From the IMG/VR virus record IMGVR_UViG_3300032257_000064, positions 1 through 35,898 of that record: a stretch of DNA of 35,898 nt, one strand, 5' to 3'. Every line of letters begins with the position of its first letter. Position 1 is the first letter of the stretch. Made by a program: the position numbers and the translations under genes. The notes under the pieces are model-generated. The model was not told the DNA's origin. It made no database searches and saw nothing but the letters and a program-made list of their open reading frames with translations. Below, in pieces: positions 1,532 to 13,530 of the stretch. This DNA comes from a virus. Its lineage: Duplodnaviria > Caudoviricetes.

Positions 1532-1783
1532 CTAATTAGCACCATTATCTTTATGTTTCAATAATTGTTCTTTGAACCATTTATCCTGACGCGCCATTGT
1601 TTTTTTATGCTCTAAATCAAATATCCTGATAGTGCGTTTGTGAAGATAATTCACCATAAAACCACCCACGCCCAATATGAAACCACCAATTACTGTTAAT
1701 AGCGTCCATTCATTAGCGGACAGTCCACCGATGACAACCATGCCGCTGCCGACGTATTGTGAACCCGTTGCCAAATCTGCCAT
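1532..1783 (-). CDS. Holin (HP1/S21-like small membrane protein)
   Basis: 83 aa with hydrophobic GLSANEWTLLTVIGGFILGVGGFMVNYLHK and a basic C-tail. First substantial gene after the Q-dependent promoter. Confidence 0.65.
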   Translation of the reverse strand: MADLATGSQYVGSGMVVIGGLSANEWTLLTVIGGFILGVGGFMVNYLHKRTIRIFDLEHKKTMARQDKWFKEQLLKHKDNGAN

Positions 1784-1824
1784 TTTTTATCCGAGCTAAT
1801 AAATTAAAAATATTATTTATTTAA

Positions 1825-1959
1825 TTAATGATCTTTTAAACTTTCCGTAACGCCAAACATTGAAACCATTGCATTGGCTTCAATCTCGGTTTCATTGTCA
1901 TCTTCAGATACTAAATCACAATCAAATAAATGAAATAAAAAATCTAATATTGCGCGCAT
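1825..1959 (-). CDS. Small 44-aa acidic ORF in late leader
   Basis: MRAILDFLFHLFDCDLVSEDDNETEIEANAMVSMFGVTESLKDH with AAGGA upstream. Below the ORF-track cutoff. Confidence 0.4.
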   Translation of the reverse strand: MRAILDFLFHLFDCDLVSEDDNETEIEANAMVSMFGVTESLKDH

Positions 1960-1983
1960 GATTTATATCCTTTCATTAGATGT

Positions 1984-2016
1984 AAAAAAGCCCCTCTGAA
2001 ATAAGTCAAAGGGGCT
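1984..2016 (-). terminator. Intrinsic terminator 2 of late leader
   Basis: AGCCCCT...AGGGGCT stem followed by a T6 run on the minus strand. Confidence 0.75.
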
Positions 2017-2075
2017 AACTACAATGTATGAAGGTAGCTTGTTAAAAGAAACCATCCCTGGAATCACTCGCGCAT

Positions 2076-2108
2076 AAAAAAAGCCCTGCTGGGGAACAGG
2101 GCTTTTTG
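2076..2108 (-). terminator. Intrinsic terminator tR'-like (potentially bidirectional)
   Basis: AAAAAAAGCCCTG-CTGGGGAA-CAGGGCTTTTTT hairpin just downstream of the late promoter. Confidence 0.8.
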
Positions 2109-2135
2109 AATTGGCAATAATAACAAGCTAACGTA

Positions 2136-2164
2136 TTTATAAACAATATCGGCTAGCCGGTCAA
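2136..2164 (-). promoter_or_regulatory. Late promoter pR'-like
   Basis: Minus strand TTGACC-17 bp-TATAAA, directly after the Q gene and before the terminators, as in the lambdoid layout. Confidence 0.65.
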
Positions 2165-2204
2165 CAGTAAAAAACAAAATAATTTAAAAAGTTTAAAACG
2201 TTAT

Positions 2205-2576
2205 TCACGCCACCTGTTCTGCCAGTAAAGCCAGCTGACCATCAACCCATGATTCAGCGCAATTAATAAAGTTTTTGCAGGTGGCCAGACTGACTTTCAG
2301 TTTGCTGGCCGCCGTTACTTTTGAATCCTTTTTTTGATACACCAGAATCAAAGCCTGTGACCATTTACCATTGCAGTTGGCCTGCATTCGTAACATGATT
2401 TTTTCAATCTCCCAGGCTTCAGGGTCATCTTGATACAATGGCGCGCTTGATCCGGTGTTTGCATTCATCATGGCTGACTGTGACGGATAGCCAAGACTTC
2501 TGTCTTGTGTCTTATCGAAATAATCACCCCAGTGAATTAAACGTTCCCTGGTAATCTCTATACTTTCACGCTGCAT
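2205..2576 (-). CDS. Late-gene antiterminator Q
   Basis: RLIHWG...LGYPSQS motif, C-terminal HTH and AESWVDGQL ending. Sits at the end of the early operon. ATG at 2576 preferred. Confidence 0.8.
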   Translation of the reverse strand: MQRESIEITRERLIHWGDYFDKTQDRSLGYPSQSAMMNANTGSSAPLYQDDPEAWEIEKIMLRMQANCNGKWSQALILVYQKKDSKVTAASKLKVSLATCKNFINCAESWVDGQLALLAEQVA

Positions 2577-6379: not shown

Positions 6380-6943
6380 TTAGTCCGGTAAAACTTCCGT
6401 GATGGCTTGCTGCCAGCTGACCAGTTCAGCCAGTGACTTGTTAATTTCTTTTAATGCTTTTTTAGCGTGTGGCAAATCGTTGTCATCAATCACGCCGTCA
6501 GCGATCACCGGTGCCAGCGCTTCAATGGTGCCGCCGGTGGTTTTGAGTAATAACGCCAGTGAAAACACATTGTGTTCTGGGTCATTGTGTGGAATGGGTG
6601 CAGCCAGTAAATCATAACGCGCGGCCAGCTCTGCTTTTAAATTGCGCTGTCTTTCTTCAGGCAGTGCCAGCACAATGGGTTCTTCCAAATCAACCGGCAG
6701 TCTGGAAGTGGCGGCAGGTTTCATCATACGAAACAATAACTGTGCGTTGGCTTTCATGTCTTCAAACGCATCACCGTCTTCATGAAAACGAACCACGCGG
6801 GCTTTTTCATTTGTCACCCTGCCGTGATAAATATCTTTGACGTTATTTGCAAACGTCGCCTCACTGACTTTTTCAGCCATCATGAATTGTGTCACGTGCC
6901 GGATGATGGTTTCACTGCGCGGTTCATGAATATCAATATTCAT
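6380..6943 (-). CDS. CII-like / YdaT-like regulatory protein
   Basis: Downstream of cro. NAQLLFRM...LALP motif and C-terminal ADGVIDDND typical of CII-type proteins. ATG at 6943 with GGGG RBS. Confidence 0.65.
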   Translation of the reverse strand: MNIDIHEPRSETIIRHVTQFMMAEKVSEATFANNVKDIYHGRVTNEKARVVRFHEDGDAFEDMKANAQLLFRMMKPAATSRLPVDLEEPIVLALPEERQRNLKAELAARYDLLAAPIPHNDPEHNVFSLALLLKTTGGTIEALAPVIADGVIDDNDLPHAKKALKEINKSLAELVSWQQAITEVLPD

Positions 6944-7000: not shown

Positions 7001-7288
7001 ATGTATAAAAAATTCATTATCATTATTCACTTCAGTTTTAATGATTCATCCCAAATCATTGAACGTGGTGAAACCCTAAAAACCTGTTTAAAAAAACTGG
7101 GTAATTTTTACCCCGCTTTTGCGTCCGATCATTGTTTAAGTGTTTGTCTGAAAACAGATGATCATGCTGACGCTATTCTTAAACAGTTAAATCAAACCAC
7201 CCTGACCACATCGGACAAGGTGCAAATATTTGAACTGGCCAACAACAATGCCTTCCAGGGCTTCAGCCAGCTGGCGGTGTGGTTATGA
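7001..7288 (+). CDS. Antisense-oriented small protein, ferredoxin/Cas2-like pattern
   Basis: 95 aa with beta-alpha-beta pattern ...LKKLG...D.VQIFEL...G...WL. Converges with cro (stops 1 bp apart). Confidence 0.5.
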   Translation: MYKKFIIIIHFSFNDSSQIIERGETLKTCLKKLGNFYPAFASDHCLSVCLKTDDHADAILKQLNQTTLTTSDKVQIFELANNNAFQGFSQLAVWL

Positions 7289-7289
7289 T

Positions 7290-7559
7290 TCACGCCGCTT
7301 TACTTTTTGCCACACATCGCGGGCACGCACAGTTTTCACGCGGGTATAAATCCAGCCGTAATGCATGGCGCGACACGGTAAAGTCACAGACCTTTTCAAC
7401 CGGCAGCACATATTCAGCTGGTAAACGTCTTTTAAGCCAGTTTTTAACCACCATTGGCGACACGCCCAGCGCATCAGAAAAACGCTTTAAAGCGCCCCGT
7501 TTACTGGTCTTTTCACCAAAAAAATCAATGGCCTGTTGTAATGCGTTAGATTCATTCAT
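7290..7559 (-). CDS. cro: Cro/YdaS-like transcriptional regulator
   Basis: ALQQAIDFFG...FSDALGVSPMVVKNW...LPAEYVLPVE...VSRHALRLDLY is a YdaS/Cro signature. Divergent from the repressor. Confidence 0.85.
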   Translation of the reverse strand: MNESNALQQAIDFFGEKTSKRGALKRFSDALGVSPMVVKNWLKRRLPAEYVLPVEKVCDFTVSRHALRLDLYPRENCACPRCVAKSKAA

Positions 7560-7564
7560 AAACA

Positions 7565-7594
7565 ATTATAAACATAATGTTTATGGATTGTCCA
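7565..7594 (-). promoter_or_regulatory. pR-like promoter overlapped by an operator
   Basis: TGGACA-18 bp-TATAAT on the minus strand. The operator at 7568-7584 covers the spacer and -10. Confidence 0.65.
7568..7584. promoter_or_regulatory. Repressor operator (17-bp palindrome)
   Basis: ATAAACATAATGTTTAT, with near-identical copies at 7638 and 9767. Confidence 0.75.
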
Positions 7595-7637: not shown

Positions 7638-7654
7638 ATAAACTTAATGTTTAT
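7638..7654. promoter_or_regulatory. Repressor operator over cI promoter/start
   Basis: ATAAACTTAATGTTTAT overlaps the TTGCTA-16 bp-TAAACT promoter candidate (7617-7644) and the cI start. Confidence 0.7.
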
Positions 7655-8114
7655 GATTGATGCACTAATAAAAGAGATTGAAGCCGAACTTGACCGCCTG
7701 GGCATGACCAAGCGTGATTTCTGTGATCAGGTCAACGAAGAACCCCAGACCTATAACAACTGGCGGGCACGCGGTGTGCCCAGTGCTAAACGCGCAAAAA
7801 TTGCCCGTCTGATGAACTGGGATTTTCAAGCCTTCAGTGAAGGCATCATTAAACCGGTCAGTCCCCAGGCCAACACAACCCCTGACGTGATCAATCTGGA
7901 TGGTGAGGAAAACGCGGTGTCAGTGATCGTTGAAATTCTGATTGAAACCCAGAATGAACTGATTGATGAAGGTATTTTGACAGCGCCTTTTGATCCCAAA
8001 TTGCTGGGCAAAATGGCAAAACAGGCTTATATCAACGCCGCCAAAAATAACCAGATCAACCCGCAAACCATCAAGGATGGCATTCGTTTTGCGGCGGCCA
8101 TGCAAGCCACCTGA
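7653..8114 (+). CDS. CI-like Xre-HTH repressor lacking an S24 peptidase domain
   Basis: N-terminal HTH (LGMTKRDFCDQVNEEPQTYNNWRARGVP...KIARLM), divergent from cro. The short helical C-terminus has no S24 Ser/Lys motifs. Start at 7647 or 7653. Confidence 0.75.
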   Translation: MIDALIKEIEAELDRLGMTKRDFCDQVNEEPQTYNNWRARGVPSAKRAKIARLMNWDFQAFSEGIIKPVSPQANTTPDVINLDGEENAVSVIVEILIETQNELIDEGILTAPFDPKLLGKMAKQAYINAAKNNQINPQTIKDGIRFAAAMQAT

Positions 8115-8229
8115 TCATTAAGGGTAAACCCTACAAATAAGCCGCCCATCAGAAGCCAGTGCTTTTTGTTACAAAACTGTTAAAAAATAAATTAATATAC
8201 ATCTTTATTTTTTTCCGTCCTGTTAAACG

Positions 8230-8937
8230 ATGTCTAGTTTTTCCCGTCGGATACAACAACTTATGGATGATACGGGGGCAGCTTCTTTTGAAGAACTGTC
8301 AAAATTTTCTGGACAAACCAACGCCGCTGATAAAATTTCAAAATCATCGCTTTATCGATGGGCGCAAAATGACCAAGTGTCTATTCGTTCGGCCAAACGC
8401 ATTGCAAAAGCCTTTTCATTAAATTGGCAATGGGTTTATTCCGGCACCCTGCCCATGAAATTTGACACCGTGTCAGACACCACCAATGAAAACCAGCAAG
8501 CACCGACACAGCCAGAACAAAACAATTCCGGCACACCATTAAGATTGCGACTGATCAAAGAAGTCTATAAATATTATGACTGGGAAATTGATTTAATAAA
8601 AAACACATACACTTTTCACAAGCAACTGATTGATGCAGCTGCGCGCCCCAATGAAACCCTGACCATTCCTTTGGATGATTTATTTCAATACATCATTGAT
8701 GAAGATCACAACACCGTGATTGAATCCCTTTCAGAGTGCATACACGATTTAGACAACAATATTTATTCCATTAACTACCGATACAAAACCGCTGAAGGCA
8801 TTCAAACCCGTCACTCTTATGCCATCGCTGAATTTGATGACTACACCCGCGCGGTAAAAATTATCGGCATATCGGTGCCCGTCCCTGTTAATGCAGCGTC
8901 AAAAAACGCGAATCAATTAGACCTGCTAACCGATTAA
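8230..8937 (+). CDS. Xre/CI-type HTH fused to a C-terminal PAS-like (PAS_3/PAC) domain
   Basis: HTH: FSRRIQQLM...ISKSSLYRW...RIAKAFSLNWQWVYSGTLPM, then a Q/N/T/P linker. PAS-like part: DWEIDL...F..YIIDEDH..V...L...YSINYRYKTAEG...RAVKIIG. Confidence 0.7.
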   Translation: MSSFSRRIQQLMDDTGAASFEELSKFSGQTNAADKISKSSLYRWAQNDQVSIRSAKRIAKAFSLNWQWVYSGTLPMKFDTVSDTTNENQQAPTQPEQNNSGTPLRLRLIKEVYKYYDWEIDLIKNTYTFHKQLIDAAARPNETLTIPLDDLFQYIIDEDHNTVIESLSECIHDLDNNIYSINYRYKTAEGIQTRHSYAIAEFDDYTRAVKIIGISVPVPVNAASKNANQLDLLTD

Positions 8938-9094
8938 AACCAGTTCCCAAAAATTCCCACCGCAAAGCGGCCTGTCACTGCCCTGCTTTTTTTGAAACTC
9001 TTTTGACACTTTAATGAGAACGCGGTTTAAAACAATTCTGTCCTGTGTATGCTGTCATGCGTTATTTTTCATAATAAGAAAAAGGAATAAAAAA

Positions 9095-9625
9095 ATGACT
9101 GATACAAATTACATAGACACCGTGGCTTTTGAATTTAAAAAACAACTGCACCAGCACAGCATGAAGGGGCAGTTAATTCAGGGCGCTAAAATTTTGGGGG
9201 CAGCCATCCTGTTGCTGGCATCATCTTACCTGGGCACCACCTTAAGCAGTAACAACTTGCAACACAGCAATGAACAACGCATCAGCAAAATCGAACTCGC
9301 TAATGACATCTATGAAAGCATTCCAGAAGATTTGAATATCACCATCATTAAACAAAATCAGATGTTGTCAGAGAGCCAGCAACACAAAGCCGAGATCATG
9401 GCCAAGCTGGATGAACTGGAACGCAACCAACACCAGCTAGCCTTTCAGCAAGAAACACAGATCAAGCTGGAAGCTCAACGGTTTGAAACCACACTGGCCG
9501 TGCAGGCCGAACAACTGCGACGTGAAAGACCCGTGAAACAGTCGGTTTCAAATCACACAGAAATTATTCAACTGAAAGCCAAAATCAATGAATTAGCCCG
9601 ACTTATCAAGGCCAAATCCATCTAA
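9095..9625 (+). CDS. Single-pass membrane protein with long coiled coil
   Basis: Hydrophobic GAKILGAAILLLASSYLG followed by Q/E/L-rich heptads. AAGGA RBS before ATG 9095. Confidence 0.65.
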   Translation: MTDTNYIDTVAFEFKKQLHQHSMKGQLIQGAKILGAAILLLASSYLGTTLSSNNLQHSNEQRISKIELANDIYESIPEDLNITIIKQNQMLSESQQHKAEIMAKLDELERNQHQLAFQQETQIKLEAQRFETTLAVQAEQLRRERPVKQSVSNHTEIIQLKAKINELARLIKAKSI

Positions 9626-9647
9626 AGCGCCCACCCATACCCCTCAC

Positions 9648-9672
9648 AAAGCCCAGTTCATGGGCTTTTTTT
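9648..9672 (+). terminator. Intrinsic terminator closing the immunity operon
   Basis: AAAGCCCA-GTTCA-TGGGCTTTTTTT. Confidence 0.85.
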
Positions 9673-9756
9673 ATGCCTTTTTTCATCAGCCAGCCTGCAA
9701 ATCATCAATAAATCAATACATAAATAAACAATAATCAACATTTTGGTGGTTTTTAT

Positions 9757-9786
9757 TTGACAGTAAATAAACTTTATGTTTATTAT
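9757..9786 (+). promoter_or_regulatory. pL-like early promoter with operator at 9767-9783
   Basis: TTGACA-18 bp-TATTAT. The spacer carries ATAAACTTTATGTTTAT, matching the cro/cI operators. Confidence 0.75.
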
Positions 9787-10033: not shown

Positions 10034-10309
10034 ATGACAAGCACCAACGCCGTCACCATCCAGCAAGCCGCCAAACAACTGGGCATGGGTCAGCGCAAAT
10101 TATTTTCATTCATGCGTGATAAGAGAATCATTTTTAAAGACAAGATAACCGGCTGCAACCTGCCCTTTTCACGCTTTGTTGAACAGGGTTATTTGGCCAC
10201 AAAAAACAGCAGCTGGGTGCAGGAAGGCATAGGTGAACGAACCAGCACAAAAACAATGGTCACAACCAAAGGGCTGTTCTGGTTACAAGATTTAATCAAC
10301 AACAAATAA
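10034..10309 (+). CDS. Antirepressor KilAC (ANT-C) domain protein
   Basis: IQQAAKQLGMGQRKLFSFMR...NLP...VEQGY...TMVTTKGLFWL. Confidence 0.85.
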   Translation: MTSTNAVTIQQAAKQLGMGQRKLFSFMRDKRIIFKDKITGCNLPFSRFVEQGYLATKNSSWVQEGIGERTSTKTMVTTKGLFWLQDLINNK

Positions 10310-10328
10310 ATTAATACTGGGGAAAAGT

Positions 10329-11198
10329 ATGATTACAGTGAACAGTTATTTTTCTGGGGGCGGTCTGTTTGACATCGGTCTTCAGCAGTCTGGGTTAGAC
10401 ATTCAACATTCATTTGAACTGGATGCCACTTGCTGCAAAGTGCAAAGTCATAATTTTAATAAAGACATTCAGCCAACTGATATTTCAGAAAAACTGGTAT
10501 TAACCGACACCGCCGGTGATGTGCTGGCCTTCACTTACCCTTGCACCAAATATTCAACCATTGCCAACATTCATGAAACGCGCACCGGTGATGATATGTA
10601 CCTGCACGCTTTGCGTCATACCGCCATTCACAACCCTGAAATATTTGTCTGTGAAAACGTGCCAGGTATGCGCGCCTTCCCGTTGGTGATGGAAGCCATG
10701 ACCAAGCTGCCCAATTATTACATCACAACAATTTGCCCGATTCAGGCACAAACATGGCTACCACAAAAGCGTGACCGCATCATCATACTGGCCAGCAAAA
10801 AACCATTCAGCTGGCGGCCACCGGTTTATAAAAACCCTAAAAAATTAAAAGACATTTTAGAACATGAGCCGCGCATCACTTACCCGAAAGCCATCACCGC
10901 GCGCATGAATGGTGAATACCGTGATTTACCCATCATATCTGACCCAGAAAAAAACGATCTGGCACCCACGTGCGTGGCGCATTACGCCAAAGATAAAAGC
11001 ACACGCCTTGTTAAAGATAAACGTTTCCCAATGGGTGTGCGGCCATACAGCGTGCGCGAATATGCACGGCTTCAGGGTGTGCCGGACTGGTATGAATTTA
11101 ATTGTTCAGACACTGCCGCTTATAAAATGATCGGCAATGGCGTGCCAGTAGAAATGGGGCGGTGGGTTGGTTCTGAAATCACGCGCTATTTTAATTAG
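10329..11198 (+). CDS. Orphan C5-cytosine DNA methyltransferase
   Basis: Motif I YFSGGG, catalytic PC (TYPC), ENV, QKRDR, REYARLQG and YKMIGNGV. Confidence 0.92.
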   Translation: MITVNSYFSGGGLFDIGLQQSGLDIQHSFELDATCCKVQSHNFNKDIQPTDISEKLVLTDTAGDVLAFTYPCTKYSTIANIHETRTGDDMYLHALRHTAIHNPEIFVCENVPGMRAFPLVMEAMTKLPNYYITTICPIQAQTWLPQKRDRIIILASKKPFSWRPPVYKNPKKLKDILEHEPRITYPKAITARMNGEYRDLPIISDPEKNDLAPTCVAHYAKDKSTRLVKDKRFPMGVRPYSVREYARLQGVPDWYEFNCSDTAAYKMIGNGVPVEMGRWVGSEITRYFN

Positions 11199-13019: not shown

Positions 13020-13029
13020 AGGAAAAATA

Positions 13030-13530
13030 ATGGCTGAACAATTTGAACGTGAAACAAGGTATGCAGTTTTTAAAAACACTGACCTGAAATATCTATCTGA
13101 TGACGAACTGATGTTTTTAAACATCATTGCCAACCATATTCATGATGGGCGGCTAGAAGACAAAAAAGAACCGCTGCAATGTGCCGTGATTGAATCTGAC
13201 TGGTCAGTGCATGATGAGGCCTGGGCACTGATTGAAAAAGAGTTTAATAACGACAAAAAACCACCCGCAATAAATGGCCGCCGGTTTATGCCGTCAGAAA
13301 ATTTAAACAACATCACCAGTGACATGAAAGCACAATGCATCGGTGAATTTTCTATGGAATTAAAACACACCTGCACAGCCTGTTTTTATAATGAACCGGA
13401 TGAAAACTGTGAAGTGTGTGCTGGTGAAATAACTTACTACCAGAACCACGCGATTGACTGGACAACAACAAAAGATATTTATCAAAAAATGTTAGCCGCC
13501 AAACTCAACGAATTAAAAGGTGATGCATGA
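13030..13530 (+). CDS. Hypothetical protein with C-terminal CxxC...CxxC Zn motif
   Basis: AAGGA RBS. N-terminal ERETRYAVFK phage-type motif and CTAC...CEVC. Confidence 0.65.
   Translation: MAEQFERETRYAVFKNTDLKYLSDDELMFLNIIANHIHDGRLEDKKEPLQCAVIESDWSVHDEAWALIEKEFNNDKKPPAINGRRFMPSENLNNITSDMKAQCIGEFSMELKHTCTACFYNEPDENCEVCAGEITYYQNHAIDWTTTKDIYQKMLAAKLNELKGDA

Follow-up and report, generated by a model that had tools for sequence, protein, structure and literature searches.

A helix-turn-helix–PAS protein with a beta-clamp-binding-like tail in the immunity region of a temperate phage

Three Genes between the cro and pL-Like Promoters

We studied the immunity region of a virus of the Caudoviricetes (IMG/VR record IMGVR_UViG_3300032257_000064) and focused on a gene, here called gene 2, whose product joins a predicted helix-turn-helix (HTH) to a predicted PAS domain and ends in a motif resembling those that bind the beta clamp. 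The window analyzed is the whole record of 35,898 nucleotides (35.9 kb), which is 100% complete and has a terminal repeat of 127 bp. An initial annotation, made from the sequence alone, had placed three co-oriented genes between the cro promoter and a pL-like promoter, and we found these open reading frames (ORFs) as described:

7647/7653–8114, plus strand: gene 1, repressor candidate in the cI position, 153–155 amino acids, with an N-terminal HTH and a C-terminal domain of ~70 amino acids
8230–8937, plus strand: gene 2, HTH–PAS protein, 235 amino acids
8230–8454, plus strand: gene 2 residues 1–75, Cro/CI-type HTH (phrog_8, E 1.3e-6; phrog_4, E 0.004)
8536–8874, plus strand: gene 2 residues 103–215, PAS_3-type domain (from structure searches and the Pfam scores of homologues)
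8914–8928, plus strand: gene 2 residues 229–233, QLDLL, beta-clamp-binding-like motif in a disordered tail
9095–9625, plus strand: gene 3, 176-amino-acid protein with one hydrophobic helix near residues 27–51 and its own ribosome-binding site

Gene 2 Joins a Repressor-Type HTH to a Predicted PAS Domain

The peptides from which a repressor-type HTH and a PAS domain had been proposed were all found in gene 2 (WVYSGTLPM at residues 68–76, WEIDL at 118–122, IIDED at 155–159, YRYKTAEG at 183–190 and KIIG at 210–213). The HTH is helical in the model, with a predicted local distance difference test (pLDDT) score of about 80, and its match to PF07022 was under the cut-off (E 0.058). AlphaFold predictions from 4 and 8 sequences (mean pLDDT 61 and 73) showed a PAS-like strand pattern in the C-terminal domain, the strands and helices of which had pLDDT of about 80–90, and Foldseek matched both models to PAS domains in PDB, best to 3mr0 (E 4.3e-6 and 1.8e-5); the domain thus does model as PAS. 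Residues 100–222 also resembled PAS_3 clusters of the ESM Atlas, with 0.97 for features and a template modeling score of about 0.8 for the predicted structure. No Pfam PAS match was found for gene 2 of the window itself at E ≤ 0.1; among its six homologues, two exceeded the PAS_3 (PF08447) cut-off of 25.6 bits (33.1 and 33.8), the other four scoring 13.9–24.2. A PDB search with the sequence of gene 2 alone returned matches at chance level and was discarded, and matches to viral structure models covered PAS or HTH alone, apart from two longer ones without names. Judging from the structure searches and the two homologues above the cut-off, we regard the PAS fold of gene 2 as almost certain.

Among 1.84 billion representatives, 12 matches were found: 5 HTH–PAS proteins, 6 large proteins with several PAS domains and one unrelated sequence. 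The 5 HTH–PAS matches, P0003 and the window protein make up the seven distinct members of the gene 2 family. Among the loci compared below, L002 is the window's own contig, L005–L007 and L048 belong to the same phage as L001, and L008 is a distant relative located inside the Gammaproteobacteria genome bin G001.

The PAS domain is the most conserved part of the family, with a mean BLOSUM pair score of 2.22; the HTH scores 0.90 and the linker −0.34. Such conservation would suit the model of the initial annotation, where the PAS domain senses a small molecule, redox state or light and flips the lysis–lysogeny decision without SOS, while the membrane protein encoded by gene 3 feeds the signal in and the tail is incidental. 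In its favor, Xre-PAS-like regulators can bind ligands, as reported for MltR and myristic acid (PMC3406030). On the other hand, no ligand is indicated for gene 2: the LOV flavin signature was not found in its sequence, and the top structural hits, at 12–22% identity, are to orphan PAS domains from kinases and cyclases. The MltR ligand-binding-domain family had no match to gene 2 of the window or its six homologues in Pfam and NCBIfam scans. The model also leaves unexplained the tail, kept throughout the family.

The Tail of Gene 2 Resembles Beta-Clamp-Binding Motifs

All seven family members, which are 29–70% identical, carry the core Q-phi-x-L and a further hydrophobic residue on a flexible terminus: QLDLL in the window and QMELL, QLELL, QLSLI, QMELEI, QIPLNF and QIKLKL in the others (P0022, which is P0014 with a longer start, was excluded from the counts). 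The motif is located 8–13 residues past the last PAS strand and 2–6 residues from the C terminus, and its mean BLOSUM score is 1.48 vs. −0.37 for the unconserved spacer before it. The tail of gene 2 has pLDDT under 50 in the monomer models and is drawn as a low-confidence helix in one of the two AlphaFold models.

Published clamp motifs take the forms QphixLF and QphixLxL, and position 5 is among the most important ones (10.64898/2026.05.27.728225); the consensus is reported to tolerate variation (PMC9690074). The gene 2 family alternates between penta- and hexapeptide forms with Q and L fixed, an interchange that matches the known clamp motif variants. Among 130 other ORFs of at least 150 amino acids, none has the core motif in its final 15 residues. 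With ORFs of at least 80 amino acids, a looser pattern occurs in 2 of 130 others, and it also arises in 0.2–0.7% of tail shuffles per protein.

We modeled the tail (residues 204–235) in complex with the clamp of G001 and obtained a score of 0.61, the best of three controls reaching 0.01. Of 157 solved complexes, 116 reach the mark used for this score, as do 2 of 215 mismatched pairs; these counts are only roughly valid with the alignments used, that of the clamp having 17 rows (17 of 30 fetched dnaN loci aligned). The runs shared at least 72% of contacts, with a partner pLDDT of at least 48. The confident contacts joined tail residues 226 and 228–233 to clamp residues 171–176, 242, 247, 277–278, 320, 344, 346, 360 and 362–366, which we take to be the canonical peptide pocket. 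We predict that the tail of gene 2 probably binds the host beta clamp.

Several points weigh against this. The strict pattern QphixLF fits none of the seven members and QphixLxL only one, QLDLL of the window matches neither, and position 5 is L or I in the four closest proteins. Both search patterns were written once the tails had been inspected, and the seven members, drawn from 1.84 billion representatives and several of them from similar habitats, are not independent. In the modeling, unrelated proteins and not motif mutants served as controls, confidence in the partner's own fold is limited, and the clamp came from the bin holding the distant relative L008, not from this phage's host; the score may well reflect likeness to solved clamp–peptide structures and not binding. 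Finally, the tail may be a general localization tag instead of a sensor.

Alternatively, the tail could be a motif of another kind (a degradation tag, a contact to RNA polymerase or a repressor, or a self-association helix), with PAS serving for dimerization only and gene 2 being an ordinary second repressor or activator in the immunity region. That six of the seven members miss the strict consensus, the helix drawn in one of the monomer models and the KNAN before Q, also invariant in the four closest proteins, are consistent with such a role. The interchange of motif forms with fixed Q and L, matching known clamp variants, and the placing of exactly the motif residues in one pocket of the complex model speak against it, and we consider it very unlikely. 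As an input, the motif suggests the host replication machinery no less strongly than the PAS domain suggests a small molecule.

A phage-encoded clamp was considered as the partner of the tail and rejected, as it is not a fixed part of these phages: a clamp-like ORF is present in L008, and no clamp homologue was found in the window or in the L007 stretch. The L008 ORF (3141–3755, plus strand; 204 amino acids) lies in the pL-like operon between Ant and a methyltransferase and matches PF02767 (E 0.0013, under the cut-off), phrog_947 (E 8e-5) and phrog_3007 (E 2e-32); it could be a decoy for the HTH–PAS tail. In L007, a 105-amino-acid early-operon protein (13025–13342, plus strand) ends in QGDMFQHD, which in our judgment resembles a clamp motif.

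Gene 1 and the Operators of the Early Switch

The genes and sites around the three genes form an early switch:

6380–6943, minus strand: CII-like activator gene (phrog_4834, E 8.7e-25)
7290–7559, minus strand: cro-like gene (PF15943, 43.7 bits with a cut-off of 30; phrog_35, E 1.5e-11)
7568–7584, no strand: 17-bp palindrome, operator over the cro promoter, kept in L007 and L003
7638–7654, no strand: 17-bp palindrome, operator over the gene 1 start, kept in L007 and L003
About 9648–9675, plus strand: intrinsic-terminator-like hairpin and T-run, conserved in L001 and L004
9757–9786, plus strand: pL-like promoter TTGACA-N18-TATTAT, with a third operator (9767–9783) between its hexamers
10034–10309, plus strand: KilAC/Ant antirepressor-family gene in the pL-like operon (PF03374, 69.8 bits with a cut-off of 25.3)

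The 17-bp operators of the initial annotation were recovered as the palindrome ATAAAC-N5-GTTTAT, found on promoters in exactly three copies in the window (at 7568, 7638 and 9767); 0.009 copies were expected under an order-2 model, with the pattern picked after the repeats had been inspected. It is conserved, with three copies in L007 and two in the covered part of L003. The cro promoter matches the consensus at 11 of 12 positions, and with its −10 hexamer at 7570–7565 and the ATG at 7559, the cro-like gene is probably leaderless. Gene 1 is divergent from cro, both cro and the CII-like gene pointing away from it, and the operators overlap its start and lie over both early promoters.

Gene 1 has four full-length homologues at 56–63% identity and one fragment at 33%. 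Its C-terminal ~70 residues, a domain that is not S24, are conserved down to 33% identity, and the segment EPQTYNNWR is invariant in all five full-length proteins; the HTH is weak in profiles (homologue P0008 to phrog_4, E 0.006; profile vs. HTH protein, E 0.04). Peptidase_S24 (PF00717) had no match anywhere in the complete phage genome nor in G496, while the identical search found three in G001, and the earlier description of gene 1 as lacking the peptidase is thus borne out. Gene 1 is very probably an operator-binding repressor. Because of its repressor position, the operators over its own start and the invariant EPQTYNNWR where operators are kept, gene 1 and not the PAS protein is likely the master repressor. 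Peptidase-less cI genes are common, 210 of 271 predicted cI lacking the catalytic sites in one set of linear plasmid-like phages (PMC10432266).

These results bear on the model where a PAS ligand flips the decision. The absence of an S24 match in the genome would suit it, and SOS-independent induction modules exist (PMC10432266). Against it, gene 1 is the gene bordered by the operators, and wherever these are kept its recognition segment does not vary; in addition, no divergent small antirepressor ORF was found in the spacers beside gene 2, unlike in the transcription factor–small ORF (TF-smORF) modules. All in all, a ligand-flipped switch with an incidental tail appears unlikely. No canonical LexA box was found near the switch or the Ant gene, which is uninformative as the lexA-like gene of G001 is also without one. 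That gene (L050) has no canonical CTGT-N8-ACAG box upstream, and the host group may use another SOS box.

Some other features of the switch were seen in several phages. The pL-like operon opens with Ant and then a C5 cytosine methyltransferase (window 10034–11198, plus strand), and likewise in L001 and L008. The interval separating cro from the CII-like gene has, on the opposite strand, a 95-amino-acid ORF (window 7001–7288, plus strand; L001 7353–7640; L003 2106–2393), of equal length in the three phages, without a family match and with a terminator-like hairpin at its end (7273–7299); it is a candidate for an unannotated switch gene or antisense unit. A GGG(T/A)A(A/T)ACCC element is located just past the gene 1 stop (8122–8131); it is kept in L001 and L003, and its exact copy is unique within the window.

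Gene Order and Control-Like Elements

The HTH–PAS gene is followed by the membrane gene in all five loci with context (window, L001, L003, L004 and L008), and a cI-like gene precedes it in the four loci reaching that far and cro in three of three; the surroundings of P0012 and P0013 were excluded from these counts. The synteny of cI, HTH–PAS and membrane genes for which the initial annotation had called is thus kept in four loci besides the window. L008 is about 33% identical and retains the three-gene order, and the module is therefore old. Behind the membrane gene, L008 alone has a 199-amino-acid lipoprotein-like gene (1629–2228, minus strand) without a family match.

The spacers before genes 2 and 3 contain the following elements:

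8168–8198, plus strand: promoter-like site before gene 2, GTTACA-N19-TAATAT (consensus match only)
8214–8251, no strand: imperfect inverted repeat around the gene 2 start codon, arms invariant in three of three close loci
8944–9022, plus strand: control-like region before gene 3, with TTCCCA repeats (8944, 8954) and a TTTTGANAC array

The promoter-like site is common to three loci in the form GTTACA-N17-19-TAA(T/C)AT, the spacer being 18 in L001 and 17 in L003. The inverted repeat has symmetric pyrimidine mismatches, and no Shine–Dalgarno sequence is found at the gene 2 start; as RNA, the repeat gives a weak consensus fold (−6.7 kcal/mol), with 1 of 10 pairs compensatory. It is a candidate for either an operator or an RNA hairpin controlling translation. 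The array before gene 3 (8990–9022) has three units with an 11-bp period, the unit having been picked after inspection. The TTCCCA repeats and the array are present in four of the five loci and absent from L008: in the four loci, 0, 1, 0 and 0 of 300 shuffles reached the score of the array, and in L008, 183 of 300 did. L008 has a different palindrome before gene 2, and the recognition segment of its gene 2 differs as well, whereas the loci with the candidate target elements share the helix K-S-S-(L/F)-Y-R-W. The loss of the elements in L008 would fit gene 2 binding them, although five loci are too few to establish this.

The initial annotation had seen one strong terminator closing the three genes. 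The hairpin and T-run are indeed present; they do not prove a single operon, and a plain operon is argued against because both spacers hold conserved control-like elements. The three genes are probably under separate control regions. An opposite-strand ORF behind the invariant gene 2 leader was considered and rejected: in the 115-bp spacer upstream of gene 2, inspected by eye in three aligned loci, no such ORF was conserved.

Gene 3 Encodes a Protein with One Hydrophobic Helix

Gene 3 had been described as a membrane coiled-coil protein. One hydrophobic helix is present, but it is marginal in the window (Kyte–Doolittle 1.65, homologues 1.81–2.01; four proteins in all); after it comes a long polar region that is probably helical. 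No family match was found in Pfam, PHROGs, NCBIfam or PADLOC (the queries, 9098–9625, started after the first Met), one homologue matched SlyX weakly, under the cut-off, and the best ESM Atlas match (0.84), to viral clusters without names, is a lead only. Gene 3 is tied to gene 2 by gene order alone.

In lambda, rexAB follows the repressor and precedes the terminator and pL. Genes 2 and 3 occupy the equivalent position, with the repressor candidate upstream and the terminator and pL-like promoter after them, and could be an accessory defense or exclusion module acting in the lysogen against superinfecting phage with no role in the switch. Gene 2 would then control gene 3 and, through occupancy of the clamp, might slow down replication of the host or of the invader. 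The pairing of the two genes in all five loci and the hydrophobic helix of gene 3 agree with this, as does the reported toxicity of overproduced clamp-binding proteins (MuC, TnsE, TrfA) (10.1101/2025.01.04.631326). However, PADLOC gave no match for genes 1–3, only a weak one to the HTH region of P0013; the pair is fixed and not swapped, though L008 has a different extra gene behind it; and the HTH and the conserved flanking sites suggest regulation over toxicity. We thus consider exclusion a rather unlikely role. Both exclusion and ligand sensing through PAS are compatible with clamp binding.

The Phage and Its Relatives

The phage is temperate. It encodes a tyrosine integrase, excisionase, lambda-type terminase, portal, capsid, holin, primase and Q-like protein, and its capsid and integrase are 40–49% identical to proteins mostly from proteobacterial phages. 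Because of these matches and the location of L008 in a Gammaproteobacteria bin, the host is likely gammaproteobacterial. Parts of the region are present in three DNA runs listed as microbial mat metagenomes, one of which may be the source. No RNA run was listed as containing the region, and the contigs of two DNA runs proved fragmentary and yielded nothing further.

Relatives were few. Gene 2 and P0013 had 0 tblastn matches among 50,697 phage records (cultured relatives), scans of viral sequences for further loci found only one phage, that behind L001, and within the 97 genomes of G001's order, G001 alone matched, in addition to 7 PAS-only matches in long ORFs. The gene 1 profile matched in 1 of 400 genomes of the class, with one further genome left unscored. 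Just past the integrase, both the window phage (16126–16979, plus strand) and L007 (18320–19173) have a RadC-like JAB gene and then a 120-amino-acid HTH gene.

A Possible Clamp-Coupled Accessory Regulator

Our favored reading, which we hold tentatively, is that gene 2 is a clamp-coupled accessory regulator working alongside gene 1, a separate and likely master repressor in which a self-cleaving domain is absent. Gene 2 is in an accessory position downstream of gene 1 and has its own promoter-like site, from which it would be transcribed. The protein would dimerize by means of PAS, to which a ligand may also bind, and its HTH would bind nearby sites, the inverted repeat at its own start and/or the array before gene 3. 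Docking to the clamp would license its activity on DNA being copied or just copied, as for MuC; alternatively, docking would keep it off its sites until forks stall. The target promoters would be coupled to the state of host DNA replication, and we infer that the most likely direct targets are gene 2 itself and gene 3.

An action on the lysis–lysogeny switch itself, for example via Ant in the pL-like operon, is conceivable but doubtful; the Ant gene is itself under the third operator. Still more ambitiously, gene 2 could be a two-input gate, reading the replisome via the clamp and a metabolite via PAS, and provide a RecA-independent input to the decision, so that expression of early genes or the antirepressor would shift when host forks stall or replication stops; we think this improbable.

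The question addressed is how prophages with noncleavable repressors sense the state of the host. If true, a clamp-docking regulator would be a direct reading of host replication without RecA or LexA. It is also a compact test case: the motif is five residues long, its single host partner is essential and thoroughly studied, and the candidate DNA sites are defined.

Comparison with Known Systems

Our literature search, the coverage of which was without most subscription papers or supplements, found no published protein combining HTH, PAS and a clamp motif, nor an HTH–PAS regulator of phage immunity or a lysogeny regulator that binds the clamp. One family of host-clamp-dependent phage transcription factors turned up, MuC, acting on lytic late genes. 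Each part is known singly: Xre-PAS-like regulators, SOS-independent modules and clamp-coupled phage transcription (MuC, T4).

The immunity region of lambda has divergent cro and cI, rexA–rexB and pL, with three palindromic operators on the right and three on the left. The window resembles it in the divergent cro and repressor, in the operators on both early promoters and in the two accessory genes, one of them membrane, before a terminator. It differs in that the repressor is without S24, there are two operators on the right and one on the left, and the accessory genes match rexAB in no scan and have control-like regions of their own.

In VqmA, PAS precedes a LuxR-type HTH, whereas the order in gene 2 is HTH–PAS. 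The likeness to VqmA-phage/Qtip of VP882 and the TF-smORF modules is in having an extra transcription factor beside the repressor and, potentially, an SOS-independent route. Many phages with TF-smORF modules have a nonautoproteolytic cI, and in these linear plasmid-like phages the modules switch on a small antirepressor encoded divergently (PMC10432266); this phage carries an integrase gene, the neighbors of gene 2 run in its own direction, and no divergent small ORF was found. TF72 and TF63 are small HTH proteins with no mention of PAS in the paper or its preprint, and we rejected the idea that they are XRE-PAS proteins, as they are modeled there as small controller-type HTHs (PMC10432266). 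MmyB and MltR are chromosomal and mainly from actinomycetes, and the abstract on them mentions no clamp-like tail (PMC3406030); the homologues of gene 2 match PAS_3 instead.

Coupling of phage transcription to the sliding clamp through C-terminal clamp motifs is known from T4 gp55 and gp33 with gp45 (PMC9690074). There, the clamp is phage-encoded, the factors are of sigma type and the phage is lytic, whereas no clamp-like gene was found in the window. The closest likeness in function is to MuC, the activator of phage Mu, the motif of which is needed both to contact the clamp and to transcribe late genes; like MuC/Mor, gene 2 would be a phage transcription factor with a near-consensus clamp motif at a chain end (10.1101/2025.01.04.631326). 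The motif of MuC (QHDLF; Qx[D/E][L/M]F for Mor/MuC) is N-terminal and in a late-gene activator; that of gene 2 is C-terminal, behind PAS, in a protein whose gene belongs to the immunity region of a lambdoid-type phage that integrates, and scans of Pfam and PHROGs gave it no match to the Mor/MuC family. Gene 2 is thus best read as a protein that would work like MuC yet is unrelated to it.

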